From positions 16,804 to 80,803 of the IMG/VR virus record IMGVR_UViG_3300045988_109025: a stretch of 64,000 nt of DNA, one strand, 5' to 3'. Both the position numbers and the translations under genes were made by a program. The stretch comes from a virus. Positions 5,970 to 47,541 of the stretch are shown piece after piece; within the stretch, counting starts at the first letter, position 1, and the number at the start of each line of letters is the position of its first letter. The notes below the pieces were generated by a model that was given only the letters and a program-made list of their open reading frames with translations, did no database searches and was not told the DNA's origin.

Positions 5970-8798
5970 TTAACTGTATCTCTTAAAAAACTGAATCACT
6001 TCAACGTATGCAAGAGGTACATTGTAATGTGTTACCCCACAAAAAGTACTTATTTCATTAACTTTCAATGCGTTTTCATCATTATCTACAGAGTGATGCC
6101 CTCCGGTTCCATTCGGCATGGTTCTTAATTCTCCAACACATCCACCATTTTTCAATGACTGAATATATCCTTTGCTCATTTCATACGATACTGTGGTGTC
6201 GTCTGGCGCAATAAATATTTTTGTTGGGACAATGCAATATCTATTTTGCGTTGCCATTTTCTTGCCTTGCGCATTATAATCTCCGCTAATAGGGTATTCG
6301 ACCATTTCTGATGCAGAAATGCCAATTACTCCTCTCCAAGCTGGATTGTGACCCAACAGCTTATAAGCATTATCACGAATATACTGCTTATACTCGTCTG
6401 TTTTTTTATATAATCTCTCTGTTGCTTTATCGTATGGTGTATCAAGCACCCCATTACTGTCAACCGAAAAGCCTAAATCGTCTGCATTATTTTTTCTTTC
6501 ATTTGGATAATATCCCAATCCGTCACAAAGCATATCAAGCTCCGGGGCTAGTGGACAACAAGCCTTGATATGCAAATCGTTTTCGTAACACATATTAATA
6601 GCTTGCAACCCCCCAAGAGATTTTGAAATGACGTAAATTCTGTTTATATCTATGTTGTAATTTGCACAAGCCCATTTGATACCTTGCTTAATTGCAGCCA
6701 TATTAGTGGGATTCCCCCACTGACAACTACCTGTAGTAGTATACTTAGATGTATTGCCATTGATATCAATGATAGCAAATCCTTCATCTTGCAAATACTG
6801 AATATAATCCATATAATACTTTGAAAATTCCGTATCATTTCTATCAAGATAATCACCACTTCCATGTGCAAAATAAATAAGTGGTACTTTATCTCCTACC
6901 GATGAATAATTTGGAGGCAACCTTAATAATGCTCCAGTATAATATGGTTTTGTGTCCACTTCAACATTTGAACCGTCATAATCCAAACCTTTATTCCCAT
7001 AAAATTGAAAAGTGAAAGGCAATGTATCGTATCCATCTCTTTCATTATATGAGAAATCAATTTCCCTTAAATTTTCAAATTTAATACTACCAGTCCAGTT
7101 TGTGTTATGGTCAGATGCAAATTTTACATAACGCGTTCTTGCATCTATAAGATACGAGGAATTGTTTGTCAAAACTGTATTTTTGATAAACTCTTTATTG
7201 GTGTTATACTCATAACAAAGTAAGCTTCCCTCAAAAGATGGAGTATAAGTTGTATCAACATTGACTTTAATAAATTTCGGTGTGACTTTTTTATAAGTAG
7301 ACCTTTCATATTTTCCAGAATCATCAAGTGTACCAAAATCAAGAATTGTTTTCAGTGACAATACACAACTTTCTGACAGATTATCATTAATATCTGCAAT
7401 AGTAGCCAACTCGGTTTTTGCTACAATATTGAAATAACGAGAATCAATGTTAACAGTTTTTGTTGTAAATCTTACATATATAGAATCAGATGGAATTTTT
7501 AAGTAACTATTGTTCTTGATATCGACCCTTCTTAAGAACGTTCGATTTGCATCATACAGATACATATACATGACAGCACTGGCGTTATTAACAGTATATT
7601 TTCCGCCGTTAATAAGTTTATAATAAATATATCCTGTTGCCGAAAATAATGGGTCATTAATTTCAGTTCCATTGTCGTCCAGTGTTTTTTCAGAAACAAA
7701 CAAAGTCAAAACATCGGTTGTTATCGAAAGTTCTGGAGTAATATTTGCAATCGAATCGAATCTATCATTTAATTCTTCATTGCTAACAATTTTATATTTG
7801 ATGTAAAATTTATTTTCATTTGATAACTTTGAATTTAATCTTACATATCTTGTTTCAGCATTTAATTGAATCAAGGAGTTTTCGGAATACTTCTTTATCG
7901 AAATGAATGTATTGTCTTGTTTATATTGTGCGATATACACGGAAACGCCACTTTCCATAATAACAATATAATTCTTTGACACATATTTGACATCAATTAA
8001 ATCTGTTACTCCATAAGTTGAACTTGGCGCAATGGAACCATCATCAGATATATCACCACTTTTCATAGCAAAAGTATTTCTTTTTTCTTTAGCGGCTATA
8101 TCATCTAAATCTTCCTTTAGCGAACCAATAGCTTCTCCCGTTGCTTTTGCTTCTGCAAGCCCGCCTTCTATAGTCAATGTAGTGTCTGGCTGTGATACAC
8201 TCTGGATGTCCTTAATAGCTTGTTCTTTTGCAGAATTTACATTTTGAATAGCTTCCGCAGATGTGTTTTTAGTAAGCTCCAAAAGCTGATTTATAACATC
8301 TTTTTCTTCCTGTCCTATCTGTGGTTGATCAATCTCGATACCCTCTAGCACTGGTACTTCCGCTATTGCGGTATTCCATTCAACACTAATATTTGAATCG
8401 GAATCCGTTTTAACAGCGCAAACAATAAAACGTACCGTTCCCATATACCTTGCTGCATTTCTTCCAATAAGCCAAGAAAAAGTTACATTTTCGCCATCTA
8501 CAGCTACATCATCACAAATGTATTGGTCTTTGATGGAAACATTAAAATCCACACTGCTTACGTTTTCGAAGTTAATTCTGACTGAAAATTTGGATAAATC
8601 AAGATTATCTCCTACAATTTTGGGACATGAAAATTTAATACGTTCTGCATTTTTGTCAGATTGTACCCCACCAACTACGATTGTAGAGGGCACGAAAATA
8701 ACCCTTGTCTTAGCATCAATTGTGCATATATCGGATTCTTCAGAAAGCAAATTAACATCTTCTTTTGTGCTCATAAGTAAATCAAGTGCTGTTGCCAT
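5970..8798 (-). CDS. fibre-like protein with three internal ~100-aa repeats and a C-terminal alpha/beta-hydrolase (esterase-like) domain
   Basis: 942 aa. The N-terminal ~150 aa resemble BppU-N/prophage tail-fibre N-terminal domains. aa ~160-240 look like a coiled coil. Three repeats end in RYVRLNS / IYVRFTT / RYVKFAS (aa ~243-575). The C-terminal ~320 aa carry HGSGDY, a nucleophile elbow VISKSLGG and GGHHS near the end. Confidence 0.65.
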   Translation of the reverse strand: MATALDLLMSTKEDVNLLSEESDICTIDAKTRVIFVPSTIVVGGVQSDKNAERIKFSCPKIVGDNLDLSKFSVRINFENVSSVDFNVSIKDQYICDDVAVDGENVTFSWLIGRNAARYMGTVRFIVCAVKTDSDSNISVEWNTAIAEVPVLEGIEIDQPQIGQEEKDVINQLLELTKNTSAEAIQNVNSAKEQAIKDIQSVSQPDTTLTIEGGLAEAKATGEAIGSLKEDLDDIAAKEKRNTFAMKSGDISDDGSIAPSSTYGVTDLIDVKYVSKNYIVIMESGVSVYIAQYKQDNTFISIKKYSENSLIQLNAETRYVRLNSKLSNENKFYIKYKIVSNEELNDRFDSIANITPELSITTDVLTLFVSEKTLDDNGTEINDPLFSATGYIYYKLINGGKYTVNNASAVMYMYLYDANRTFLRRVDIKNNSYLKIPSDSIYVRFTTKTVNIDSRYFNIVAKTELATIADINDNLSESCVLSLKTILDFGTLDDSGKYERSTYKKVTPKFIKVNVDTTYTPSFEGSLLCYEYNTNKEFIKNTVLTNNSSYLIDARTRYVKFASDHNTNWTGSIKFENLREIDFSYNERDGYDTLPFTFQFYGNKGLDYDGSNVEVDTKPYYTGALLRLPPNYSSVGDKVPLIYFAHGSGDYLDRNDTEFSKYYMDYIQYLQDEGFAIIDINGNTSKYTTTGSCQWGNPTNMAAIKQGIKWACANYNIDINRIYVISKSLGGLQAINMCYENDLHIKACCPLAPELDMLCDGLGYYPNERKNNADDLGFSVDSNGVLDTPYDKATERLYKKTDEYKQYIRDNAYKLLGHNPAWRGVIGISASEMVEYPISGDYNAQGKKMATQNRYCIVPTKIFIAPDDTTVSYEMSKGYIQSLKNGGCVGELRTMPNGTGGHHSVDNDENALKVNEISTFCGVTHYNVPLAYVEVIQFFKRYS

Positions 8799-8801
8799 GT
8801 T

Positions 8802-9119
8802 CTACCCCCTCTGTGATACTTTGGTTTTACCAGTAGTTATAATGTATTTTCCGTTATCTTTTACGCCAGTGACAGATACAGAAAAATAATCCCAAGTAAG
8901 GGATTCTGGCGGAATTTCACATTGATTGTTTTTCAGTATTACTGGGTATTCTCTTTCCATTCTCCAAAATGAAGCAGCTGTTTTACATCCGTTCCACTCT
9001 GGTGAAAAGATAAACAATGCTTTAAGATATCCAGTCGTGCCCTTTACCAGTCCAGAGAAATCACACTTGGGATCTGGATAAATTCTTTGATTATTTACAA
9101 TAAATCTTAATACTCTCAT
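8802..9119 (-). CDS. small fibre-associated protein (hypothetical)
   Basis: The track ORF is 8802..9311. The ATG at 9119 overlaps the upstream TGA (ATGA coupling). The 105-aa MRVLRFIVNNQRIYPDP...GYLKALFIFSPEWNG resembles N-terminal parts of Gram-positive prophage fibre proteins. Confidence 0.45.
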   Translation of the reverse strand: MRVLRFIVNNQRIYPDPKCDFSGLVKGTTGYLKALFIFSPEWNGCKTAASFWRMEREYPVILKNNQCEIPPESLTWDYFSVSVTGVKDNGKYIITTGKTKVSQRG

Positions 9120-9502
9120 GCAATCATCCTTTCTGCTCCAACAGGTGCTACATATGTGAATTGGTTTCCCAAAATATCTCTGGCTGTTCCAATCACGAAA
9201 TGGCCGTAGTCTGCCAGAATATTGCATACAAATTCCTCTGCATCCACCCAGTATCGTTTCTTGACCATGCGATGAAGTTCTGGTAATAGACCATAACTGA
9301 ACATTACGCAATGCCCTAATTCGTGGATAAATACACGGTTCAGAAGTTCTCCATGCAGGTTGTTTGCAATCGAAATAACACCAGTAGAATAATCAGATAC
9401 AGCAAGTGTTCTATTTCCTGTACGGTCAATCAAAACATTATCATTGGGAGAAACAAAGCGCACTCTCCATAAGTCCCCATTCATATAGAATTGTTTCAGC
9501 AT
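9116..9502 (-). CDS. small HExxH zinc-metallopeptidase-like protein (ImmA/SprT-like)
   Basis: 128 aa with FIHELGHCVMF (HExxH) preceded by ISIANNLHGELLNR, a context resembling the M78/SprT-type motif. Confidence 0.55.
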   Translation of the reverse strand: MLKQFYMNGDLWRVRFVSPNDNVLIDRTGNRTLAVSDYSTGVISIANNLHGELLNRVFIHELGHCVMFSYGLLPELHRMVKKRYWVDAEEFVCNILADYGHFVIGTARDILGNQFTYVAPVGAERMIA

Positions 9503-13625: not shown

Positions 13626-14663
13626 TTATTCCCCCGCCTTGGTACCGATAACGATACCGCCGTTAGCTTTTGGTGCAACAGGAACAAACATACCGGATGC
13701 TTTTGTCCATACTGCAACTGGGTCTGGTGTAGCCCACATGGAAAGAGTAACAAAGGAACGATTCTCTTCCTGGATAAACTGTCTGTATTCAAGCTCTTCT
13801 GGTGTTACGCCCCAAAGACCGGAGCCAAAGGAACCATTTGCATTTGCTTCATACAGAGTAAACACATCTTCTTTGAAGTATCTTCCTGTTTTCAGAGTTC
13901 CGTCTGCTTTTCTGTAACGATATTTTTCATCACAGCGATCAATTGTAATTCCGTACTCCTGCATGAGAAGGTTCGCAAGCTCCTGTTTCGTCAGAAGACG
14001 TTTGTTTGCAGCTCCAAGAACTGCGGTCTGCATTGCAGTATTATTTCTCATGTAATTAATCATTTTAAGAGAAGTAAGAGCTTTGTTTACCACATATCCG
14101 TTATCTTCTGCAATGGCTACCATTTTTGAGATATCGCCCATGATATCTGCGTCTGGCTTAGACCAATCAGTAAGTGTTACTTTTGCATCAGATGTAACGC
14201 CGTAATCAATGCTCATATCCACATGATTTTCCTTGATTTTTACAATACCAGTGGAAAGGAACTGGCCTTTCATTACATTCGCCCTTGCGACTACGCCCTC
14301 AAAAAGATTGGCTGCATCGTCAAATACAAATTTTTTGAGATTATTGTCATCTGGAACACCATTTTCAATAGCTTGCTGTAATCTCTCAGACTGATTGATT
14401 TTTCTCTTGATGAAAAGCTTCTCGGTCAATACCTTTTCAAAGCCAGGTCTGGAACCGATTTCTGCTTCGGTATCAAGTGCGTGAACAAAAGCTACCTCTG
14501 GCAGTCGCTGTCCAGCCATAAGTCTGTAATACTCTGCTTTCAGATACTGGGTTTTTGTATCCGGGAAAATGGTACCGAGGATGCCGGGTCTTTTTACATC
14601 AAAACTCTGGGAGAAATTAAGTCTCTCTTCCTCTGTGATTGTTTCTAATACATTAAATGGCAT
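13626..14663 (-). CDS. major capsid protein (gpE-like)
   Basis: 345 aa, located downstream of the scaffold and decoration genes. The N-terminal and overall pattern are typical of the phage major capsid protein E family. Confidence 0.75.
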   Translation of the reverse strand: MPFNVLETITEEERLNFSQSFDVKRPGILGTIFPDTKTQYLKAEYYRLMAGQRLPEVAFVHALDTEAEIGSRPGFEKVLTEKLFIKRKINQSERLQQAIENGVPDDNNLKKFVFDDAANLFEGVVARANVMKGQFLSTGIVKIKENHVDMSIDYGVTSDAKVTLTDWSKPDADIMGDISKMVAIAEDNGYVVNKALTSLKMINYMRNNTAMQTAVLGAANKRLLTKQELANLLMQEYGITIDRCDEKYRYRKADGTLKTGRYFKEDVFTLYEANANGSFGSGLWGVTPEELEYRQFIQEENRSFVTLSMWATPDPVAVWTKASGMFVPVAPKANGGIVIGTKAGE

Positions 14664-15788: not shown

Positions 15789-16424
15789 TTAATTGTATTG
15801 AATTGAGCAGCGACAGTTCACGATTTCTTTACTGGAAGCTCCGTGTGAAACATCTTTTGGAAAAAGCATTAAGCTGTCACCGACTGCAAACAACTCCTTG
15901 ATTGGAATTGTCGTCCCACCAACTTTAAGATGTGTTCTGCGCTCTCTTTTATCTCCTATATCTTTCCATGTTTTATATTTCTTTCCAGATTTGATTGCAT
16001 CCGTGTATTCCTTATAATTCAATGAAGTATTTGCTTCACATTCAGAAATAAACATTGCTCTGTCTCTGGAAAGATAATACTCTTCCTTGATGTGATCGAA
16101 TGTGGATTGAACAACATCATGTGAGAATTGTCTAACATAATCCGTGATATAGTCATCAACAGCAAAATATATAGCTGTTATCGCAAGGTATTGTTCGGAT
16201 AACTCATTTTCTATATATTCCTGGTCAACTTCTTCATTTTCAACCATTGTTTCTATCAGTGACAAACAAAAAAGAATAACTTCTTCCATCTGTTCGGAAA
16301 AAGCTATCCTCAGTCTTTTTTGTTTGTCAGAAATGGACATTTTATCGAAATATTCTTCGTATGGTTCACTTCTGCGATTTTCTGATAAAACATTTAATTC
16401 ATCAAACTGTAAGGCTTTATTCAT
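15789..16424 (-). CDS. minor head protein (Mu F / SPP1 gp7-like)
   Basis: 211 aa. The C-terminal RRTHLKVGGTTIP...FPKD...EIVNCRCS matches the Mu-F NCRC signature. It overlaps the portal stop. Confidence 0.75.
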   Translation of the reverse strand: MNKALQFDELNVLSENRRSEPYEEYFDKMSISDKQKRLRIAFSEQMEEVILFCLSLIETMVENEEVDQEYIENELSEQYLAITAIYFAVDDYITDYVRQFSHDVVQSTFDHIKEEYYLSRDRAMFISECEANTSLNYKEYTDAIKSGKKYKTWKDIGDKRERRTHLKVGGTTIPIKELFAVGDSLMLFPKDVSHGASSKEIVNCRCSIQYN

Positions 16425-17886
16425 TATCTATCACGCCTTTATTGATTGGATTCTGAAATTTTTTATCCAGTAATTGTTGAGCTTTCTGCACTTCTGCTTT
16501 TGGGTCTGCCAGTTCTGGATAAATTGTTCCAAGATAAGGAAGGCTCATTTCGTAAACTTTTTGTGGATCACTAAATAGCCCACAGGTAATCAGCGCAATA
16601 AGCGGATGAATTTTATTTTTGAACAGATAATCAAGAGCCTGTGCTTTTACAAGCATATTGTCTGTTGGGTTTCTGGTTATCTTTACATCAAAATCTCGGG
16701 TTGAGATATTAACATCATTTGATGTACCACGGATAATATTCAGAATAATTCTGGCAGATTCCTTTTCAGCTTCCTTGGTGAATGCTTCTACCAATTTTGC
16801 ATCTCTCTCTGCGAAATCCCATCCATTACGAAGGTATACGGCATTTCCTGTATCCCCTCCGCTATTGCTTTGTCGGTTTGGCATTGCTTCCACAATCAGC
16901 ATATTATTGTAGATGTCATCCTTTGCAACCTGGCTCTCTGACTGGTTCAATTCAGCGGTCATCAGTTCAACATCCGACTGACAGCCATTTCCAGTATCTT
17001 TAACAGAGATAGCACCAAGTTTTACCATTTTCAAAAACTCGTTTTCGTCTACCTCGCAGTTTTTAAATTTCATAAAGGCTTGTACGAACTGTTCCACACC
17101 ATTTAATCTATCAGACTGATATTTGTTAATTGCATCAAATAAGGTGATTGCAATTTCAACATCTGAAAGTCTGTCGTGATTATTCGGGCATTCAACAATA
17201 GGAATTCCTCCAAAACCATTGATGCCGTAGTTAGTTACTTTTCCATTCTTGATTTCAAAAAACTGGTTCTTTGAATAGCACAAATAATATTGCTGTTCAT
17301 CTTCATCTTTTAAAATCTGCACGGAAAGCATTGGTTTCCCATTTCTCTGTGAGTATACAATGTAACAATCACCTGGATATGGAATGAAGATTCTAAACGG
17401 TGGTAAATCTCCGTTTTTTTTCCAGTCCTCTTCTTTCAGAATAGCCTTATAAGAAGTTCCTGTTGCGCTCTGGTATATTGCCCTTTGGATGTTTCTTGCA
17501 TCTGCATTGGCTTCATCCAGATAATCATTTAAAAGGTCAACTTGCTCATTTATTTTTTCGTCTGCATTTTTCTTTTTGCATACATATTGGATTGGTTCCC
17601 CGCAAATCTGTCCAGCTTTAAACTTCACGGTTTCAAATGCGTGATTTTCAACCACTCTGTTATTAACTTCTGGACGGACTATTTTATTTCGGTATAATAT
17701 CGGCTGATCGCCTTTCATGTACCGATACAAGTAATCAATCAATGTTCGGTTTCTATTATGTATGCCAATTGTATCTGATACTACTTTTACTACATTTTGT
17801 GGAGTGATTCGGTCAACACCTGTGTAGGCTACTTTTCGCCCGAACTCACCTCGGCATAAATCTACAAAATTCATTGTATTTCTCAA
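16417..17886 (-). CDS. portal protein (SPP1 gp6-like)
   Basis: 489-aa ORF (TTG at 17886; the first ATG is at 17874) between the terminase region and the Mu-F-like gene. Confidence 0.75.
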   Translation of the reverse strand: MRNTMNFVDLCRGEFGRKVAYTGVDRITPQNVVKVVSDTIGIHNRNRTLIDYLYRYMKGDQPILYRNKIVRPEVNNRVVENHAFETVKFKAGQICGEPIQYVCKKKNADEKINEQVDLLNDYLDEANADARNIQRAIYQSATGTSYKAILKEEDWKKNGDLPPFRIFIPYPGDCYIVYSQRNGKPMLSVQILKDEDEQQYYLCYSKNQFFEIKNGKVTNYGINGFGGIPIVECPNNHDRLSDVEIAITLFDAINKYQSDRLNGVEQFVQAFMKFKNCEVDENEFLKMVKLGAISVKDTGNGCQSDVELMTAELNQSESQVAKDDIYNNMLIVEAMPNRQSNSGGDTGNAVYLRNGWDFAERDAKLVEAFTKEAEKESARIILNIIRGTSNDVNISTRDFDVKITRNPTDNMLVKAQALDYLFKNKIHPLIALITCGLFSDPQKVYEMSLPYLGTIYPELADPKAEVQKAQQLLDKKFQNPINKGVIDNE

Positions 17887-18417: not shown

Positions 18418-20112
18418 CTATCTCCTTCCCCACATAAAATTTTTGGTTGCTTTTACTTCTGCAAATCTTTTGCCGGCAAGCGTTATTGCAAGCTGCGTAA
18501 CTCCATCGGCAGCGTCATCATGTTCATTATCGCCAATATATACGAATGTAGTTAATTCATCCATAGCCTTTTGATACTGTTTATCTTGATATTTCGGAGC
18601 CAAAAATATAAAATTTTGCTTAACATCCCCAGAATATTGATTTATTTTTTCTTTTTTTGCTTGTTTTGAAGGTGCTTTTGTACTTGTCGTGCTGCAAGCG
18701 TATTTATGTTCTTTCAAGCGTTCGTTTACATAATAGGCATACATATCTCCACCATTATTTGCTTCAAAATTAATGGATTGAATATTATTTCCCATGATTC
18801 TTCCAACAACTAATGGCAATGTTCCTTCTTTTGGTGCTGTGCTAAAAATCCAATCATAAATATATACATCTCCATTTTCGTATTCTGCACCCACTGGCAT
18901 TGATAAGCTATCGCCACCACCCCACGCAACATCGCAAGCAGAAACATTTTTAACAAATCCACCTTCTGGAAGAACGCCGTTATAATATCTCAATTCATCA
19001 GCTGCAAACACAATTCCTTCACGCAAAAAGGGCTTTTGCTGATATTTAGCTTCCCATTCGTTAGCGTCTAGCCTAGCTTTCATATCAACATAATATTTTG
19101 TTGAAAATCCAACGCCATATTCATAATCGAAATTGGATTCACCATCATCGTTCAAAGCTGGAATTTTTCTAAACCGATACATTGGATTATCCCGATTTAG
19201 CTTCTCAATTTTTCCAAGAGGATCATATAAATTCCATCTGGTTCCAACCATAAGTTCTCTTGCGCCATCAATCTTACGGTCAACCATCTTATTCAAATAT
19301 TCTTGATATGTATTTTCTAATCGAGTAGGGCTTAATGAATGTTGCCTGTCTCTTACAAGGTCATCCACGTACAAATACCCATCAGAAGAAATATCAACGG
19401 CACCTGTCCAAGTACCTTCAATACCACGGCAAGTCATTGTTGCAAATCGGTCTGGCTTGTCCAGGTTTATTTCAAAATCATCAGCACTCTGTTTTTGAAG
19501 TTTCGATTGCGGAAAAATTTCACTGTAGTTGTATTCCTGTGTATTAATGAGGTTAAGAAGTTCTCCGTAAAATCCTTTTGCCAGTTTTCCAGAATGACCA
19601 CCCATGGCGCTATGACTATTCGGTCTTTTTCCCATTATCCATGACATAAAGAAAATACACATAGTGGATTTTCCAACACGGCTTGGAAGTGATAAACCGT
19701 AAAACTCTATCTTTCTTTCTTCCAAATCTTGTAGGTCTTTGGCTACCACATGCAGTGTTTTTTTTCGTGGAATATAAAATTTCTTGCTGTCCGGTCTATT
19801 TTTTTCCATATAAAGCAAGTAACTTTCAAATAAATGTGGCGCTTCCAGTAGCAAATACTGCCAGTAGATATCGTCAAAATTACCACTTCCAGTTAATGCA
19901 GCACACTTCTCTGCCATGTTATGTGAGTATTGACTTACTTTCATAGCCATTTTCCGTGCTTCTTGATTCTTGTTGAAAGGAAGGTCAATATTCATATTTA
20001 AGAGCAAATCAAGGCAATCTTTTTGATTTTGATAGATTGTCATGTCGCTACTGATAATCTGATTTAGGACTGTCCGATACCATTCAAGCGAACCTTCTGT
20101 AATTTTTCCCAT
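18418..20112 (-). CDS. terL: terminase large subunit
   Basis: 564 aa. Walker A-like LPSRVGKST, an acidic Walker B-like YLYVDDL and a C-terminal nuclease-like half. It lies upstream of the portal. Confidence 0.85.
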   Translation of the reverse strand: MGKITEGSLEWYRTVLNQIISSDMTIYQNQKDCLDLLLNMNIDLPFNKNQEARKMAMKVSQYSHNMAEKCAALTGSGNFDDIYWQYLLLEAPHLFESYLLYMEKNRPDSKKFYIPRKKTLHVVAKDLQDLEERKIEFYGLSLPSRVGKSTMCIFFMSWIMGKRPNSHSAMGGHSGKLAKGFYGELLNLINTQEYNYSEIFPQSKLQKQSADDFEINLDKPDRFATMTCRGIEGTWTGAVDISSDGYLYVDDLVRDRQHSLSPTRLENTYQEYLNKMVDRKIDGARELMVGTRWNLYDPLGKIEKLNRDNPMYRFRKIPALNDDGESNFDYEYGVGFSTKYYVDMKARLDANEWEAKYQQKPFLREGIVFAADELRYYNGVLPEGGFVKNVSACDVAWGGGDSLSMPVGAEYENGDVYIYDWIFSTAPKEGTLPLVVGRIMGNNIQSINFEANNGGDMYAYYVNERLKEHKYACSTTSTKAPSKQAKKEKINQYSGDVKQNFIFLAPKYQDKQYQKAMDELTTFVYIGDNEHDDAADGVTQLAITLAGKRFAEVKATKNFMWGRR

Positions 20113-20187: not shown

Positions 20188-21141
20188 TTATTCAGCATTC
20201 TCATCAGCTGTCATATCTCTTGTATCTACGATAGTAGAAGTGTTACTTCCTTGAATTTTTGGTACTTCACCATTCCATTTATCAATTTTCTGTTTTTCAA
20301 TCAGTTCGGGAGTAAGAGATTCTGCAATTTTTCTATTTGCTTCTGCTTCGGCTTCTGCTTTAATCTTAATTGCTTCTGCTTTACCTTCTGCATCAATTTT
20401 AGCTTGTTCTGCCTGGATAGATGCTTTTTCTTTTTCCTGTTCAGCTGCAATCAGTGCAACTTCTTTATCTTTATCGGCTTGTACTTTCGCTGTTTTAGCT
20501 TCAATGTTAGCAAGTTCAAGCTCCTGTTGAGCGTTCACTTTCTTCTGAATTGCAGCCTGTGTTTCATCATCAGTGGAAATGGAAGTAAAGTTTACTGTAT
20601 CAATAATAATTCCGTATGGCTCAAACTTCTGTTTAAGATATTCGTCAAGTGCTTCATTCAGTTCCTGGCGTTTATCACCGAAAACATCTGTTACTGGATA
20701 CTTCGCAGTTACTTCCTGCGTCCATGCTTTCATCTTAGGCTTAATAAAAGTATTTTTCACAGATTCCCCGGATTGACCTTTGAACTGAGTAAATACATCA
20801 GTTACTCTGCTCTGATCGAATTTATAAGAAAATTCAAGGTCGACTTGAAGCGATTTTCCATCTGCCGTTGGTGTCTTGAAACTTTCATCTTTTGGAGAAT
20901 CGCCCTTATCCTCAGATGTAAGATAAGACTGCTCGATTCCAACGGAATACAGTGAAGTTTTTACTGTTGGTGAAATCACATGCCATCCCTGTGTAAGTAC
21001 ATTCTTAGAGATTCCTCCGTTCATTTTGTACTCTACCGCAATGTAACCAGCCGGAACTCTCACACTGCACTTTGCAACACATATAAGTCCTGCAATGATT
21101 ACAACAGCTAATCCAATTCCACCTAAAAGTCCTTTTTTCAT
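20188..21141 (-). CDS. SPFH/Band-7 (prohibitin/stomatin-like) membrane protein
   Basis: 317 aa with an N-terminal TM helix, an SPFH-like core (VPAGYIAVEY...FEPYGIIIDTVNFTSI) and a long A/E/K coiled coil. Confidence 0.75.
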   Translation of the reverse strand: MKKGLLGGIGLAVVIIAGLICVAKCSVRVPAGYIAVEYKMNGGISKNVLTQGWHVISPTVKTSLYSVGIEQSYLTSEDKGDSPKDESFKTPTADGKSLQVDLEFSYKFDQSRVTDVFTQFKGQSGESVKNTFIKPKMKAWTQEVTAKYPVTDVFGDKRQELNEALDEYLKQKFEPYGIIIDTVNFTSISTDDETQAAIQKKVNAQQELELANIEAKTAKVQADKDKEVALIAAEQEKEKASIQAEQAKIDAEGKAEAIKIKAEAEAEANRKIAESLTPELIEKQKIDKWNGEVPKIQGSNTSTIVDTRDMTADENAE

Positions 21142-22484: not shown

Positions 22485-22817
22485 TCAGCACATTCCTTTG
22501 TTTTTCCTTAAATTAGCGTATCGGTCAACCAATGTGTCAACAGTAACAGTTAACTCGTTGATTCTAATACAGTCATCCTGGTGGCGTTGTTCATACCATT
22601 CTATAGATGGATGACCAGTATCTACATTTTCAATTCCATCAATCGGAATCTTCCAGTTATCATTTTCAAGAAGCTTTTGGTTAAGTGTCTCCGATAAAGC
22701 TTTATAGTCCAGGATTATATGCTGTTTTTTCTCGCATTCATCAGCCAAACGAACAACTTCATTTTTCAACTGTTCTTCTGTCCAATTTGCCATATCCTCA
22801 AATTTCATATTTACCAC
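22485..22817 (-). CDS. hypothetical coiled-coil protein
   Basis: 110-aa track ORF, tightly packed. Confidence 0.5.
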   Translation of the reverse strand: MVNMKFEDMANWTEEQLKNEVVRLADECEKKQHIILDYKALSETLNQKLLENDNWKIPIDGIENVDTGHPSIEWYEQRHQDDCIRINELTVTVDTLVDRYANLRKNKGMC

Positions 22818-23086
22818 CTCTGTCTTCGAAAATTGTCTCTTCCAAGCATAAATTTTTCGGCTGAAAAATTATCCTCTACATCAATATGTGCTTCACGGTC
22901 TTGCAACTCATATCCGTTTGGGGTTAATTCAAGTTTTGCAGTATATTCAGCGCCGCAATTGGTGCATTGCCATGTCACATTTAAAAAGAGTCCTTTTTCT
23001 ATAAAAGGGTTTGTGAAATCGGCATTTTCACATTTCAATATTCCACCGCAAACAGGGCAATTGCGTTTATCAAGTAAATTTAGCAT
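22811..23086 (-). CDS. zinc-ribbon protein
   Basis: 91 aa with CPVCGG ... CTNCGAEY. Confidence 0.5.
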   Translation of the reverse strand: MLNLLDKRNCPVCGGILKCENADFTNPFIEKGLFLNVTWQCTNCGAEYTAKLELTPNGYELQDREAHIDVEDNFSAEKFMLGRDNFRRQRW

Positions 23087-23247
23087 TCAAATTCCCTCCT
23101 CTCCCTGTGCTTCATCTGACAGGCAATCATTTTAGCTATGTTTTCACGTTCCTGTTTTATTCCATGCCCTTGCCGAAACAATTCACATTCAAGGATGTTT
23201 CCACAATGTGAGCATTCGTCTTTGATTTCTTTACCGCATATTTCCAT
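23080..23247 (-). CDS. Cys-rich mini-protein
   Basis: Internal ATG at 23247 (MEICGKEIKDECSHCGNILEC...). Confidence 0.4.
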   Translation of the reverse strand: MEICGKEIKDECSHCGNILECELFRQGHGIKQERENIAKMIACQMKHRERREFEC

Positions 23248-23380
23248 CTTCTTTTCCTTCCCAAAACTCGCAACAGCACTCTGGTTCCGTAAAGTCTGCA
23301 CAATATTCGCTATCACCATTGAAACAAACCCATGTGAAGTCATCATGTCTTCTGCAATTCTTGCAACATTTTTCTTTCAT
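23231..23380 (-). CDS. Cys-rich 49-aa mini-protein
   Basis: Manual translation gives MKEKCCKNCRRHDDFTWVCFNGDSEYCADFTEPECCCEFWEGKEDGNMR. There is a GAGGT RBS upstream of the ATG at 23380. It is not in the track (<60 aa). Confidence 0.45.
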   Translation of the reverse strand: MKEKCCKNCRRHDDFTWVCFNGDSEYCADFTEPECCCEFWEGKEDGNMR

Positions 23381-23496
23381 AAATTACCTCGATTTAGAAA
23401 AATCCAGTGTGCCGACTTGAACGGCATAAATCTCCCAACGAGAAACACTGGAACTTTAGGGGGAAATGCAACTTCTGGCAATGGCAATTTGCCAGA

Positions 23497-23568
23497 TAGA
23501 AACAACAGGAATCGAACCTGTGTCACATGATATTGAGTATCATTGCTCTACCACTGAGCTATGTTTCT
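23497..23568 (-). tRNA. tRNA with anticodon loop ACUCAAU (anticodon UCA, opal-suppressor/Trp(UCA)-like)
   Basis: Manual cloverleaf: AGAAACA-TA-GCTC-AGTGGTA-GAGC-A-ATGAT-ACTCAAT-ATCAT-GTGAC-ACAGG-TTCGATT-CCTGT-TGTTTCT-A. All four stems are perfect. Position 33 is C rather than U. Confidence 0.65.
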
Positions 23569-23791: not shown

Positions 23792-23863
23792 TTGCAGGAG
23801 ACGGATTCGAACCGCCGTTCTCAAGGATATGAGCCTTGCGAGATTCCACTTCTCTATCCTGCC
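23792..23863 (-). tRNA. tRNA-Met/Ile2-type (anticodon CAU), 1:72 mismatch
   Basis: GGCAGGA-TA-GAGA-AGTGGAA-TCTC-G-CAAGG-CTCATAT-CCTTG-AGAAC-GGCGG-TTCGAAT-CCGTC-TCCTGCA-A. G1 is opposite A72. Confidence 0.65.
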
Positions 23864-24153: not shown

Positions 24154-24226
24154 TGGAAGCTCTGGGATTCGAACCCAGGACTTACGGCTTATGAGGCCGT
24201 TGCTCTTACCGCTGAACTAAGCTTCC
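24154..24226 (-). tRNA. tRNA-Met/Ile2-type (anticodon CAU)
   Basis: GGAAGCT-TA-GTTC-AGCGGTAA-GAGC-A-ACGGC-CTCATAA-GCCGT-AAGTC-CTGGG-TTCGAAT-CCCAG-AGCTTCC-A. Confidence 0.8.
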
Positions 24227-24439: not shown

Positions 24440-24511
24440 CGGGGCTAGTCGGATTCGAACCGACAAATATAGGAACCAAAATCCTATGCCTTACCATTTG
24501 GCGATAGCCCA
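24440..24511 (-). tRNA. tRNA-Gln (anticodon UUG)
   Basis: TGGGCTA-TC-GCCAAATGGTAAGGC-A-TAGGA-TTTTGGT-TCCTA-TATTT-GTCGG-TTCGAAT-CCGAC-TAGCCCC-G. It has a U1:C72 weak pair and G73, as in Gln tRNAs. Confidence 0.8.
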
Positions 24512-25946: not shown

Positions 25947-26492
25947 CTATGAACATTGGCGTTTTATATACTCAATATCATTTGCACCAGTGTCTTTGTA
26001 GTAGATGTTTTCTTTTCTCCCGTCTAGGTAAATTATTTCACCAACATATGAGCCATCAGAAAGCCCATCCACACTATTTGTAGCTGTTACGTCAACAATA
26101 TTTCTGACACTTTTAATCCCAATAGACTGAATGTAGCGTTTAAAAACTGGAAGCCCAACTATTGTTGTTCTATTAGAATATCCAAGTAATTGTTGTGCTT
26201 TTCTGCATCCGATTTCTCCATTGATGTATTGATCGAATACATGAGCATTCTTTTCAATACTTGATTTTGAATGTCTTCCGCCACGGCTATTGTTTCTGTA
26301 ATGGTTAATGTGTTGTCCCATATGAGCTGCTTTATGGCATTTATAGCATAAAGGAACAATATTACTCTTAACATCATTACCGCCTAATAAAAGCGGCACA
26401 ATATGATGATATTCAATATCTTCTGTTGCGCCACAATTGCAACAGACAGTACCAATATTCTGTTTTTCTTCTTGGCTCAACCATTTTCTCAT
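25947..26492 (-). CDS. HNH endonuclease
   Basis: 181 aa with CCNCGATEDIEYHHIVPLLLGGNDVKSNIVPLCYKCHKAAH, a clear HNH motif. Confidence 0.8.
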   Translation of the reverse strand: MRKWLSQEEKQNIGTVCCNCGATEDIEYHHIVPLLLGGNDVKSNIVPLCYKCHKAAHMGQHINHYRNNSRGGRHSKSSIEKNAHVFDQYINGEIGCRKAQQLLGYSNRTTIVGLPVFKRYIQSIGIKSVRNIVDVTATNSVDGLSDGSYVGEIIYLDGRKENIYYKDTGANDIEYIKRQCS

Positions 26493-28104: not shown

Positions 28105-28632
28105 CTAATTCATTCTTTTTAGTATTTCTTTCTCCAAAAATCTAGATTCATAAAAATTTTTATTATTTGCATATTCCTTTAATAAATTTTCATTTGACAA
28201 TTTTAACATGCTATAAACTTCTTGCTTTCTTTTCGAGAGTTTTTCCTGTTCTTCCTTTATTCTTTCCAATCTTCCATTTACCACGGCTATTGTTTCAAGA
28301 TTATATAAATCTTCACCGTTTAGGATTCCAGATTTTATCAACTGATATTCTTCTAGATACATTTTATTTTTAATTTCATCATAATACAAATAATTTGATT
28401 CATCAATGATTTGCATAATTTTAAAATCAAAGTCATCATTTTTTAGAATATCTTGTTGTATTAATTTGTTATTGTGTTTTCCTCTTCTAATTTCGCAAGA
28501 GTGAGATTCAGCACGTTTTTTTAATTGTGTTGAAGATCCTATATATCTTTTTCCGGTTCTTCGGTTTATTATTGTGTATACTCCACACTGATTTTTATTT
28601 GGAATATTATTTAACTTGCTCACTGTAACCAC
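28105..28632 (-). CDS. GIY-YIG nuclease (homing-endonuclease-like)
   Basis: 175 aa with GVYTIINRRTGKRYIGSSTQLKKRAESH, matching the GIY-YIG motif. Confidence 0.75.
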   Translation of the reverse strand: MVTVSKLNNIPNKNQCGVYTIINRRTGKRYIGSSTQLKKRAESHSCEIRRGKHNNKLIQQDILKNDDFDFKIMQIIDESNYLYYDEIKNKMYLEEYQLIKSGILNGEDLYNLETIAVVNGRLERIKEEQEKLSKRKQEVYSMLKLSNENLLKEYANNKNFYESRFLEKEILKRMN

Positions 28633-33236: not shown

Positions 33237-34949
33237 TTATAGCGCTAAAAGGTACTTATATTTGTAAAATACCATATGTTGTGTCTTGATGCAAGTTTTC
33301 CTACTAAATATCTTGTGTTGTTCTGGATGTAGAGTTAAAATCATATCGTCAGAACGGCGCAAGGGAAACCCCCATTTTTCAAGGCTTCCAGACCTCAATT
33401 GAAATGTTAGTGTTGCACATGTAGCCGCCAACGGTTCCACGGTAATTTTTTCAAAAAGTTCATTGACAATCTGCCTGTTAATGTCTTTTGGAGTAACGCC
33501 TTTGAACTTTTCTAACTGTTCTTTAATAGCACTTAATTGTATTTCTGCTGGCTCTGGACTTTTAATATTTTGTAGTTCTCGAATATGGCTTTCTGTCTGT
33601 TTTATCTGTTTTACATATTCTTTATTTCTTGAAACAAATTCATCATCAGATATTTTGCCATCTAAATTATATTCCAGTATTTTTTCACGCTTTTGTTTTA
33701 ACAGGTCAATCTGTTTTTCAAGTCGTGAGATTTCGTTTTTATTGTCTGGAATGTTTTTGATCGAGGACTGCAAAATTTCAAAATATTCCTCCAAAATGCT
33801 ATCAATGTTTTCAGAAGATTTATTTATTAATTCTGCAATTACTTCTTTCAGTTCTGATTCTGCCAGTCCAAATGAATCACATGAAGCTGCTCCGTTTTTT
33901 ATTTTATAGCTGCATACCCATCGAACATCTTCTTTTCCTCTGATATAATGTTGCTTCATCCAGTATGGAGCTCCGTCATTTGCGCAGAAAAGTTTTCCAG
34001 TGAAAATATTTTCGTTTTTAAAAGAGGTTCTTCTTGATTTTATGGCTTCTCCACGTTCTCTTAAATATGCGTTTGCCTTTTCCCAGGTAGTTTCATCAAT
34101 GATCTGCGGTACTCTGGAACCATCATCCTTAAACATTATCCATTCTGACTGCGGAAGAAATTCTTGTTTCTTGGTGAACATATCGACAACCTTTACTTTT
34201 CCTCCGCAATAGTATCCTTTGTATTTTGGATTCCGAATAATATTTTTTATGACATCCCGGTTGATTTTCCCGCCTTTGAAACTTCTGTATCCCATATCCC
34301 AGAGTTTTTTTTCGATTCTTGGCGTAGATATTCCGGAAGCATAATCTCGAAAAATCATTCGAACCATGTCTGCTTCTTCTGGAATCAGTTCGAGCTTCCC
34401 TTGATTGTTTGAGTATCCATACATTCTGTGCCCGAGAACAACACCGTTTTTGATCGACTGTGCGTGTCCAAACTTTACTCTTGAAGAAAGCTTGCGGATT
34501 TCGTCCTGCGCTACCCCAGCCATAATAGTAAGTCGGAACTCACTATCATCATCAATAGTGTTAATTCCATCGTTTTGGAACCACACGCATACGCCGTAAG
34601 ATAACAATTCCCTGGTATATTGGATGCTGTCAAGAGTATTTCGTGCAAATCTTGAAATTTCTTTCGTAATAATCATGTCAATTTTTCCGAGCTTTGCATC
34701 TCTGAGCATTCTTTGAAATTCTTCTCTTTTATCCGCATGTATTCCAGAAATACCATCATCAATGTAAGAACCAGCAAACTTCCATCTGTTGTTAGAATGT
34801 ATCAGCTCTTCAAAATGTTCCTCCTGGTGCTTAATGGATGCTTGCTGTTCAACTTTTTCAGTAGAAACCCTGGCATAATAAGCAACATTTAGTTCAATGT
34901 CGTAAATAGAGCAATTTCTTAATTTTTCTCTGACATAATAAATATTCAT
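33237..34949 (-). CDS. int: large serine recombinase (integrase)
   Basis: Internal ATG at 34949 (MNIYYVREK...). Resolvase catalytic region YARVSTEKVEQ...ITKEISRFARN, a recombinase domain, a Cys-containing zinc-ribbon region and a long coiled coil. Confidence 0.85.
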   Translation of the reverse strand: MNIYYVREKLRNCSIYDIELNVAYYARVSTEKVEQQASIKHQEEHFEELIHSNNRWKFAGSYIDDGISGIHADKREEFQRMLRDAKLGKIDMIITKEISRFARNTLDSIQYTRELLSYGVCVWFQNDGINTIDDDSEFRLTIMAGVAQDEIRKLSSRVKFGHAQSIKNGVVLGHRMYGYSNNQGKLELIPEEADMVRMIFRDYASGISTPRIEKKLWDMGYRSFKGGKINRDVIKNIIRNPKYKGYYCGGKVKVVDMFTKKQEFLPQSEWIMFKDDGSRVPQIIDETTWEKANAYLRERGEAIKSRRTSFKNENIFTGKLFCANDGAPYWMKQHYIRGKEDVRWVCSYKIKNGAASCDSFGLAESELKEVIAELINKSSENIDSILEEYFEILQSSIKNIPDNKNEISRLEKQIDLLKQKREKILEYNLDGKISDDEFVSRNKEYVKQIKQTESHIRELQNIKSPEPAEIQLSAIKEQLEKFKGVTPKDINRQIVNELFEKITVEPLAATCATLTFQLRSGSLEKWGFPLRRSDDMILTLHPEQHKIFSRKTCIKTQHMVFYKYKYLLAL

Positions 34950-35030
34950 AGTGCATTTCTCCCTTAATAAACAGGGAGTGGAATCATATAAAGTATAACA
35001 CCTCATATAAATCCACTCAATACATTGTCG

Positions 35031-45675: not shown

Positions 45676-46410
45676 TCATTCCACCTCTTTTAACCGTTCG
45701 CTCCCAATATGAAAATATTTTTCTTCTTTCTCAAAACCTAAGAATCTTCTACCTGTAGTTCTGCAGGCAACTCCTGTGCTACAGGAACCGGCGCAATTAT
45801 CCAAGACTAAATCACCTGGATTTGTGTATGTTTTGATTAACAATTCCATAAGTGATAACGGTTTTTGTGTTGGATGTAGCGCGCATTTTTGACTGTCTTT
45901 TGCAAAAGTCCACACAGATGTTGGGAAACGCTCTGTACTGTCATAAGAAGTTAATCTGTATTTCCCATAGTTTGTTGTTTCTTTGCATTTAACCTTATGT
46001 TCCACTTTACTTATTTTTCTTTTGTTTCCAGTTGTTTTCTGTGGATTATAAGTAGGAAGTTTTTTATAAAAAACACAAATATCTTCATGTGACCGAAGAG
46101 GCATTTTGTTAGCATTCAAAAATCCTGTAGGTTGTGTTTTCTGCCATATCAAGTTATATCGCCACATATCACGATTACTTTGCATTAAATCTGCAGTAAA
46201 CATTCCGTTTGCAAATAATATAATGGCACCATGCTCTTTAATAATTCTTTTATACTGTTTCCATAATGGCTCAAACGGAATAACCGAATCCCATTTATTT
46301 CTTGCTGTTTGTCCATATGGAAGGTCGGTTAAAATCATGTCTATTGATTCGTCATCAATCAATTTAAAGCCATCGAAACAATCCATACAGTAAAAACCGT
46401 CATTTATCAT
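45676..46410 (-). CDS. DNA methyltransferase (beta-class N6A/N4C type)
   Basis: ATG at 46410. It has LTDLPYGQ and DNCAGSCST motifs and abuts the second methyltransferase. Confidence 0.8.
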   Translation of the reverse strand: MINDGFYCMDCFDGFKLIDDESIDMILTDLPYGQTARNKWDSVIPFEPLWKQYKRIIKEHGAIILFANGMFTADLMQSNRDMWRYNLIWQKTQPTGFLNANKMPLRSHEDICVFYKKLPTYNPQKTTGNKRKISKVEHKVKCKETTNYGKYRLTSYDSTERFPTSVWTFAKDSQKCALHPTQKPLSLMELLIKTYTNPGDLVLDNCAGSCSTGVACRTTGRRFLGFEKEEKYFHIGSERLKEVE

Positions 46411-47115: not shown

Positions 47116-47541
47116 TCACCCTTTTTCAATCTGGTCAATGAGTTTCTTGCATTCATTTTTAACATAGGCAAGTGAACGAATTTTGCAATCTGGATCTTTA
47201 TTTAATTCTCGCCAGCAATCTCCCATTATTTTAAGCATTTTTTTGAAGTCTGGTTCTTCTCCGAAATACTGTTCTGCTGTCTCAATATCATAACCATCGA
47301 AACAATGAGCACAGTCAAATCCAATCCACCATGTATCATCATCGTCACAATCGTGTAGAAATGGTTCTGAATAAGTAACTCCACCATGGCAGTAAAGATA
47401 ACCTAAATCATCAACACTTTTCTTTGCCAGCTTATGGCTGTTAGGTATTCCAACATATCCGCATCTGTATGCTCCGGGCATAAACAGGACTACACATTGG
47501 TAACCTTTATACTCGAATTTAGTTTCTAAAACTGGTTCCAT
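47116..47541 (-). CDS. hypothetical protein
   Basis: 141-aa track ORF. Confidence 0.5.
   Translation of the reverse strand: MEPVLETKFEYKGYQCVVLFMPGAYRCGYVGIPNSHKLAKKSVDDLGYLYCHGGVTYSEPFLHDCDDDDTWWIGFDCAHCFDGYDIETAEQYFGEEPDFKKMLKIMGDCWRELNKDPDCKIRSLAYVKNECKKLIDQIEKG

Follow-up and report, generated by a model that had tools for sequence, protein, structure and literature searches.

The window, that is, the whole stretch of DNA analysed here (64,000 nt, or about 64 kb), represents about 80% of the genome of a common temperate phage of the human gut with a genome of about 80 kb. Most of its genes lie on the minus strand, and the features referred to below are as follows.

13626-14663: major head protein (PHROG/Pfam scan)
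16417-17886: portal (PHROG/Pfam scan)
18418-20112, minus strand: large terminase (phrog_38, E=7e-51), by which the phage family and the host clade were defined
23397-23496, minus strand: conserved 3' trailer of the UCA tRNA, with two hairpins (diversity, fold and terminator scan)
23497-23568, minus strand: class I tRNA of 72 nt, here called tRNA X, with allele C33-U34-C35-A36 and A73 (ARAGORN, Rfam RF00005 and minimum-free-energy fold)
23534-23537, minus strand: polymorphic tetrad of tRNA X, with C33 at 23537, U34 at 23536, C35 at 23535 and the invariant A36 at 23534 (comparison with relatives)
23568, minus strand: nucleotide 1 of tRNA X, an A/T polymorphism (loci of relatives)
23792-23863, minus strand: tRNA of 72 nt with a CAU anticodon that is invariant in relatives (ARAGORN and Rfam)
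24154-24226, minus strand: tRNA-Met (CAU) of 73 nt (ARAGORN and Rfam)
24440-24511, minus strand: tRNA-Gln (UUG) (ARAGORN and Rfam)
33237-35006, minus strand: large serine recombinase (integrase; phrog_95, E=4e-111)

The phage was considered temperate because of the large serine recombinase. Further genes of the type found in Firmicute phages encode a replisome organiser, an SbcC-like protein, two DNA methyltransferases and an antirepressor, and there was a weak, sub-threshold match to RecT. Neither a synthetase nor a reverse transcriptase was recognised among the 36 ORFs scanned against PHROGs or Pfam. A total of 556 terminase relatives were found in IMG/VR, the best 80 of which were at least 98% identical and came from contigs 76-86 kb long. 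Less close terminase relatives, at 53-66% identity, were present in genomes of Roseburia, Lacrimispora, Hungatella and other Lachnospiraceae, and the host was therefore taken to be a standard-code Firmicute. When GenBank phages were compared with the region by megablast, a single match was obtained, to an unannotated fragment of 5 kb. Identical copies of the proteins at the window ends were also sought, with no match, and relatives were used in their place.

A sequence-only reading of this DNA had described tRNA X as a canonically folded phage tRNA with anticodon UCA and an unusual C33, accompanied by a tRNA-Gln(UUG) and two CAU tRNAs. This description was borne out throughout. ARAGORN placed a 72-nt tRNA with anticodon tca on the minus strand at 23497-23568 and called all three neighbours as well, giving an array of four tRNAs, all on the minus strand. 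The match to RF00005 (tRNA) in Rfam was full-length and free of non-canonical pairs (62.6 bits, E=1.6e-12, gathering score 29), and it scored higher than two of the three neighbouring tRNAs. The tRNA reads AGAAACA UA GCUC AGUGGUA GAGC A AUGAU ACUCAAU AUCAU GUGAC ACAGG UUCGAUU CCUGU UGUUUCU A, with stems of 7, 4, 5 and 5 bp that are entirely Watson-Crick and exactly as had been described (acceptor AGAAACA/UGUUUCU, D GCUC/GAGC, anticodon AUGAU/AUCAU, T ACAGG/CCUGU). G18G19 are present, the variable loop has 5 nt (GUGAC), the T-loop is UUCGAUU, the discriminator is A73 and the gene does not encode the CCA end. The anticodon loop of 7 nt is A32 C33 U34 C35 A36 A37 U38, with anticodon UCA at 23534-23536 and C33 at 23537. 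The cloverleaf was also the minimum-free-energy fold, in which A32-U38 was predicted to pair in addition, leaving a loop of 5 nt. A shifted loop register, which would read GAA or CAA from positions 35-37, was rejected, as no alternative 5-bp stem was found on checking by hand. Sequencing error was excluded because the identical 72-mer was present in 20 fetched loci and the identical loop ACUCAAU in 53. The UCA tRNA is genuine and structurally canonical, and its anticodon pairs with UGA; U34-C35-A36 also pairs with UGG by wobble. Two features of elongator tRNAs, U33 and a non-Watson-Crick 32-38 pair, are missing from the window allele (C33, A32-U38), U33 being present in the majority allele described below. 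C33 removes the N3-H donor of the U-turn, and a Watson-Crick 32-38 pair is likewise expected to weaken decoding.

A distance of 3.4 kb separates the tRNA array from terL downstream of it, HNH and GIY-YIG endonuclease genes precede the array, and no small terminase was recognised upstream of it in an ORF profile search, so that the position between terS and terL given in the sequence-only reading is putative. These homing-endonuclease genes (25947-26492 and 28105-28632, minus strand) flank the array, and insertions or deletions of about 2 kb were seen in relatives between the CAU tRNA and the polymorphic tRNA, indicating that the array is a hotspot of mosaicism. The trailer of about 100 nt that follows tRNA X was as conserved as the tRNA itself (diversity 0.02-0.035, as against 0.3-0.4 upstream, where the flank is highly mosaic), and its fold had a z score of -2.4. 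Its first hairpin (UCUGGCAA/UUGCCAGA, 23474-23496; 8 bp with a 7-nt loop) adjoins A73. The second is long (23403-23452), is accompanied by a U-run and was matched as terminator-like in the terminator scan; the small Cys-rich late-region ORFs follow immediately. No known RNA family was found for the trailer in Rfam. With the Rfam models, which did not include a dedicated theta ribozyme model, no HDV-type ribozyme was matched at E≤10, and by our reading the hairpin adjoining A73 leaves no room for a ribozyme P2/P3. Within the Cys-rich region, the listed ORF 23080-23346 probably mis-frames two small genes (region 23200-23385, minus strand), one encoding MKEKCCKNC... from near 23381 with a GAGG ribosome-binding site and the other MEICGKEIKDECSHCG....

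The orthologous 72-nt tRNA of the relatives was labelled Ser(tga) by ARAGORN in most cases, less often SeC(tca) and occasionally Trp(cca), and was absent from some. Across these alleles the tRNA bodies were nearly invariant, and positions 33-35 took five states, given here as the anticodon loop, the allele and its occurrence among loci and among distinct 1.37-kb haplotypes.

AUUGAAU, U33-UGA: 108 of 181 loci, 59 of 98 haplotypes
ACUCAAU, C33-UCA (window allele): 53 of 181 loci, 27 of 98 haplotypes
ACUGAAU, C33-UGA: 12 of 181 loci, 6 of 98 haplotypes
AUCCAAU, U33-CCA: 6 of 181 loci, 4 of 98 haplotypes
AUUCAAU, U33-UCA: 2 of 181 loci, 2 of 98 haplotypes

Position 33 was thus U or C, position 34 U or C and position 35 G or C. 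As all four base combinations exist at 33 and 35, sites that are two nucleotides apart, at least one of the changes must have recurred. On a tree of the flanks the allele required 25 parsimony changes, compared with a mean of 34.8 and a minimum of 28 when labels were shuffled. The allele is only loosely tied to the genomic background and is scattered over flank haplotypes; in one pair of contigs, with 98.3% identity over 3.6 kb, the 1.3-kb flanks were identical while positions 33 and 35 differed. Contigs of both alleles also came from one sample, 3300029477. Nucleotide 1 also varied, the A1-U72 pair of the window being replaced by a U1.U72 mismatch in about one third of relatives, in combination with both major alleles. 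The canonical tRNA-Trp of the phage family likewise begins with U1.U72. Some relatives with a terminase that was at least 98% identical lacked tRNA X, which is therefore dispensable.

Nucleotide diversity in the tRNA body, with nucleotide 1 and positions 33-35 left out, was 0.009, about 30-fold less than in the flanks (0.27). In the neighbouring Met, CAU and Gln tRNAs the changes were scattered over stems and loops, and position 33 and the anticodon were invariant. In a scan of the whole IMG/VR collection, position 35 was never A or U and position 36 was never anything but A. The frequent change at position 35 is a G/C transversion, the mutationally easier G-to-A transition never being seen, and neither indels nor stem-breaking alleles occurred at appreciable frequency. 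The variation does not extend beyond positions 33-35 and is under constraint. Its generation by a diversity-generating retroelement (DGR) or by other templated mutagenesis was discounted, as the window contains no second copy of the arm, no reverse transcriptase was found among the 36 scanned ORFs and the adenine-specific change of a DGR does not account for the key G/C change at 35, which is not at an adenine.

Besides describing its structure, the sequence-only reading had seen in the tRNA a hint of stop-codon recoding, while noting that the long ORFs were intact in the standard code. The latter observation was correct, the window being 90% coding in code 11, but the hint was not substantiated. 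The 123 greedily chosen ORFs of the window ended in TAA (68), TGA (32) or TAG (23), so that TGA made up 26% of stops, and most siblings carried a non-suppressor allele or no tRNA X. Long ORFs in the same frame were parted by a single TGA in only two places: at 47116, between a MazG-like protein and a phrog_19106 protein of full length, and at 45676, between two complete DNA methyltransferases; the ORFs at both junctions are independent genes. ORF calling with code 4, code 15 or TAA read-through was set aside, as only the trivial lengthening expected from stop removal was obtained. It had also been proposed that in-frame TGA codons be sought outside the window. The corresponding part of the genome (16.7 kb) was assembled from two merged loci of contig 3300045988_096722, which bears the same UCA/C33 allele; in code 11 it likewise proved to be 90% coding, and it includes uninterrupted ORFs of 943 and 1541 aa. 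Among the stops in 20-kb loci of relatives, TGA accounted for a fraction of 0.375 with the UCA allele, 0.37 with the UGA allele and 0.345 where tRNA X was absent.

An association between the tRNA allele and matching codons (TGA, TCA or TGG) was also sought. In the 8-28 kb part of the window no perfectly associated site was found among about 175 typed loci, and the strongest association (0.72) reflected ordinary linkage within a block of the SPFH gene (20188-21141). Elsewhere in the genome typing relied on contig matching, with 16-52 kb thinly covered; a few perfect associations were obtained there, from 4-7 loci per class, none of which was a G/C change at the middle base of a codon. In-frame stops detected in relatives by tblastn mostly fell in antisense or overlapping ORFs or were C-terminal stop shifts, and those apparent at 23200-23385 were attributed to the mis-framing of the listed ORF. 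One clean case was found, a GGA-to-TGA change at codon 32 of a small Zn-ribbon gene homologous to 22811-23086. It was present in nine of ten C33-UGA loci (for example L034, L145, L157, L167, L169, L177, L181 and L188) and in no locus with another allele, and the remaining ORF was intact, with 97.8% amino-acid identity. The tRNA of this clade itself reads UCA codons and cannot read UGA. The Zn-ribbon TGA is thus a clade-specific nonsense or read-through codon beside a tRNA that is one step from the suppressor allele. As siblings carry UGA or CCA, or lack tRNA X, no gene can depend on UGA read-through. The phage uses the ordinary code and neither uses nor needs a recoded UGA. Depletion of TGA has been proposed to precede recoding, and occasional TGA-suppressor tRNAs have been noted in standard-code phages (Borges et al., bioRxiv 10.1101/2021.08.26.457843); of these features, the window phage has the suppressor-type tRNA and lacks the TGA depletion.

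The amino acid with which tRNA X might be charged was considered next to these results. Bacterial tRNA-Trp is recognised by G73 and C35-A36, with C34 tolerant to U, and TrpRS is the enzyme known to accept U34-C35-A36. The window allele has C35-A36 and the discriminator A73, in contrast to the G73 of the canonical tRNA-Trp of the family (locus L036). The body agreed with that tRNA-Trp at 47 of 65 non-loop positions, with likeness in the D arm, anticodon stem and variable loop, and with phage tRNA-Phe(GAA) genes, one of which has A73, at 48-50 of 65. BLAST against annotated phages returned Met, Arg, Asn and Phe tRNAs at about 79-82% identity, the two best being tRNA-Phe. Thus, although the CCA allele and the likeness of the body to the family's tRNA-Trp may point weakly to Trp, body similarity appears to favour neither Trp nor Phe decisively. 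Of the earlier suggestion of a Trp(UCA)-type tRNA, C35-A36 and the CCA allele stand in weak support, while A73 in place of G73 and a body equally like tRNA-Phe tell against it. Furthermore, the order of the alleles (UGA > UCA >> CCA) is the reverse of that predicted for a Trp-charged tRNA, if misreading is costly. Serine identity is not matched by the majority allele: bacterial tRNA-Ser has a long variable arm (class II) and G73 (PMC7609411), both absent from the polymorphic tRNA with its 5-nt variable loop and A73, so that the majority UGA allele is a class I tRNA with a serine anticodon. In locus L036 (3884-4047) and two other fetched loci an extra tRNA block was observed, comprising Tyr-GUA, Met, Trp-CCA (G73) and a class II Ser-UGA; all three of these loci carry the UCA allele of the polymorphic tRNA.

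The presence of selenoproteins in Clostridia, together with the UCA anticodon, would favour a selenocysteine tRNA, as in the ARAGORN label SeC. That label rests on the anticodon alone, however, and the identity is refuted by structure and has next to no probability. In bacterial tRNA-Sec the arrangement is 8/5, the D stem has 6 bp, the variable arm is long and position 73 is G (PMC7609411), whereas tRNA X is of 72 nt with 7/5 acceptor and T stems, 4 bp in the D stem, 5 nt in the variable loop and A at position 73, and Rfam picks the general tRNA model within the clan.

tRNA-Trp(UCA) is known from code-4 Mollicutes and mitochondria, and a classical opal suppressor was derived from E. coli tRNA-Trp. 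Like these, tRNA X has U34-C35-A36, A37 and A1-U72, and its CCA allele is one step from the U33-UCA allele; unlike them, it has A73 rather than G73 and C33, its body is no closer to tRNA-Trp than to tRNA-Phe, and its host does not read UGA as sense. A closer parallel in setting is offered by the Sup-UCA tRNAs of gut phages, which have been acquired also by standard-code relatives of the TGA-recoded 'Agate' phages (Borges et al. 2021/2022) and which share with tRNA X the class I structure, the UCA anticodon, a standard-code Firmicute host and a position near late genes. In contrast to these, tRNA X belongs to a phage without recoding, in which TGA makes up 26% of stops, has C33 for U33, and is orthologous to genes that have sense anticodons in most siblings. 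Anticodon shifts, or alloacceptor remolding, have been described in eukaryotic nuclear and metazoan mitochondrial genomes (PMC3923123, PMC4783518). As in those cases, an orthologous tRNA, identified by synteny and an identical body, changes isotype by anticodon substitutions alone; here, however, the change is a standing polymorphism in near-identical phages, includes a stop-reading state and involves three anticodons only. Non-canonical bases at 32, 33 and 38 are shared with nuclease-insensitive phage tRNAs (van den Berg et al. 2023, PMC10264068; Azam et al. 2024, PMC11555353), but those keep their anticodon and a clear isotype, while here the anticodon changes. Allo-tRNAs of Clostridia, Proteobacteria and Acidobacteria (Mukai et al. 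2017), as far as they are summarised in PMC7609411, also combine a single scaffold with many anticodons, including non-cognate ones; in that summary their arms are of the 8/4 or 9/3 type and their charging by SerRS is accounted for by a long variable arm, in contrast to the 7/5 class I cloverleaf seen here. Stop-reading phage tRNAs, and anticodon shifts in eukaryotes and mitochondria, are thus already known. No description of a standing, constrained anticodon polymorphism with a suppressor state among near-identical phage genomes was found in the literature searched.

With some hesitation, we regard it as slightly the more probable outcome that the window carries one allele of a dispensable, selectively maintained, anticodon-shifting phage tRNA and that this allele is not a sign of recoding. 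The tRNA is the last of a four-tRNA array that would be transcribed together with the late and packaging region of a temperate, standard-code Lachnospiraceae phage of about 80 kb in the gut. Its body is held constant in the population, while positions 33-35 switch among a permitted set of UGA, UCA and CCA with U or C at 33. If the host charges the UCA tRNA, this would be expected to compete with RF2 at UGA and to give only low-level read-through, its decoding being presumably attenuated by C33, the Watson-Crick A32-U38 pair and the non-Trp A73. The UCA/C33 allele would accordingly be a weak opal suppressor at most. The weak-suppressor model leaves the majority UGA allele, a class I tRNA with a serine anticodon, unexplained, as it does the restriction to G or C at 35, and the equal TGA stop share across alleles fits a very weak suppressor and a non-decoding tRNA equally well. 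More tentatively, and with rather less than an even chance, the alleles may form a balanced set under diversifying but constrained selection, which would act either on tuned UGA read-through or misreading or on a decoy in an arms race with nucleases or toxins.

Three other explanations were weighed against that of a selectively maintained, anticodon-shifting tRNA. It is very improbable that tRNA X is a dedicated suppressor by which TGA is recoded to Trp, as in code 4, in late, tail-fibre or lysis genes. The anticodon is UCA, the tRNA lies just upstream of the late genes and recoded gut phages are marked by suppressor tRNAs (Borges et al.), yet no in-frame TGA needs to be read in the window or in the 16.7 kb of the same-allele relative, and TGA, with 26% of ORF ends, is not depleted. 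Furthermore, the suppressor anticodon occurs in about 30% of relatives only (UGA in about 66%, CCA in about 4%, and some without the tRNA), no site in the genome co-varies between TGA, TCA and TGG with the allele (16-52 kb being thinly covered), and the sole clean in-frame TGA sits in a clade whose tRNA reads UCA codons. A decaying or neutral tRNA gene, in which the anticodon changes reflect drift and UCA is accidental and inert, would agree with the dispensability of the tRNA in some relatives, the lack of a detectable allele effect on stop-codon usage and the odd loop with C33 and the A32-U38 pair. Drift, however, would spread changes over the gene, whereas here the flanks are about 30 times as diverse as the body, and the neighbouring tRNAs too are more variable than tRNA X; nor does drift fit the exclusive G/C transversions at 35, where G-to-A is never seen, the unchanging A36, and the rarity of indels and stem-breaking alleles, none of which reach appreciable frequency. 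Drift is consequently an improbable account of the gene, and we favour selection as the likely reason why the alleles persist.

The third explanation, an anti-defence tRNA or decoy, is on the whole unlikely, but it was kept as a serious rival because of the conflict between Trp and Phe identity and the reversed allele frequencies. It supposes that the tRNA shape is kept while the loop Y33-Y34-S35-A36-A37 (Y, pyrimidine; S, G or C) tracks the specificity of anticodon-loop nucleases or toxins of the host, for example enzymes attacking tRNA-Ser(NGA) or tRNA-Trp(CCA). The RNA would serve either as a replacement that cannot be cleaved or, uncharged, as a substrate competing for the enzyme; on this view UCA would be a stage in an arms race and not a suppressor. 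Variation at 33-35 only, with a strict S35-A36-A37 and an invariant body, is consistent with this, as are the balanced allele frequencies, spread over genomic backgrounds, and the lack of a translational footprint of the UCA allele. Some members of the family add a canonical tRNA-Trp(CCA) and a class II tRNA-Ser(UGA), which have the same two sense anticodons, and in related prophages a tRNA-like gene has its anticodon loop replaced by a UUCG tetraloop, so that non-decoding tRNA-like RNAs exist in the group. Against this, no host nuclease, toxin or cleavage site is known, charging would still be required of a replacement tRNA and has no explanation in the case of the UGA allele, and the evidence is wholly circumstantial. 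The UCA allele, at 30%, is also hard to explain as mimicry, since no cellular tRNA except tRNA-Sec is known to have a UCA anticodon. In favour of the decoy, altered anticodon loops of phage tRNAs have been proposed to evade anticodon nucleases, and the A/U at 32/38, in place of the C/A of the family's canonical tRNA-Trp and tRNA-Ser, matches the pattern proposed for nuclease-insensitive phage tRNAs (PMC10264068, PMC11555353).

Suppressor-type phage tRNAs are routinely taken as flags of an alternative code. As the present case demonstrates, a canonical UCA tRNA can occur as an allele at a polymorphic locus of a phage that adheres fully to the standard code, and such calls need checks at the level of the population and of individual genes. 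The interest of the locus lies more in its population genetics than in any value as a marker of another code. If selection does maintain the polymorphism, an abundant human-gut phage would offer a natural system with hundreds of sequenced variants, in which the tolerance or use of anticodon change by a virus could be addressed, be it as tunable read-through, as a first step of recoding or as a means of countering immunity that targets tRNAs. For experiments, the natural alleles constitute a ready allelic series.

Two further observations were made. The tRNA-like genes with a UUCG tetraloop lie upstream of the terminase in L210 (4674-4745) and L211 (9002-9073), which derive from Clostridium sp. 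AM49-4BH and Lachnospiraceae MAG prophages, and ARAGORN assigned them an 'anticodon' of 2 nt; in another locus (L217) a Gln-like tRNA had a loop of 6 nt. RNAs that resemble tRNAs without decoding may be widespread among these phages. Elsewhere in the window, a TAG-ended ORF of 169-196 aa (8802-9311, minus strand) is in frame with the 942-aa ORF that follows it (5970-8798), for which no PHROG match was obtained. This junction recalls the layout of a tail chaperone and tape measure, and it could be a site of read-through or frameshifting.
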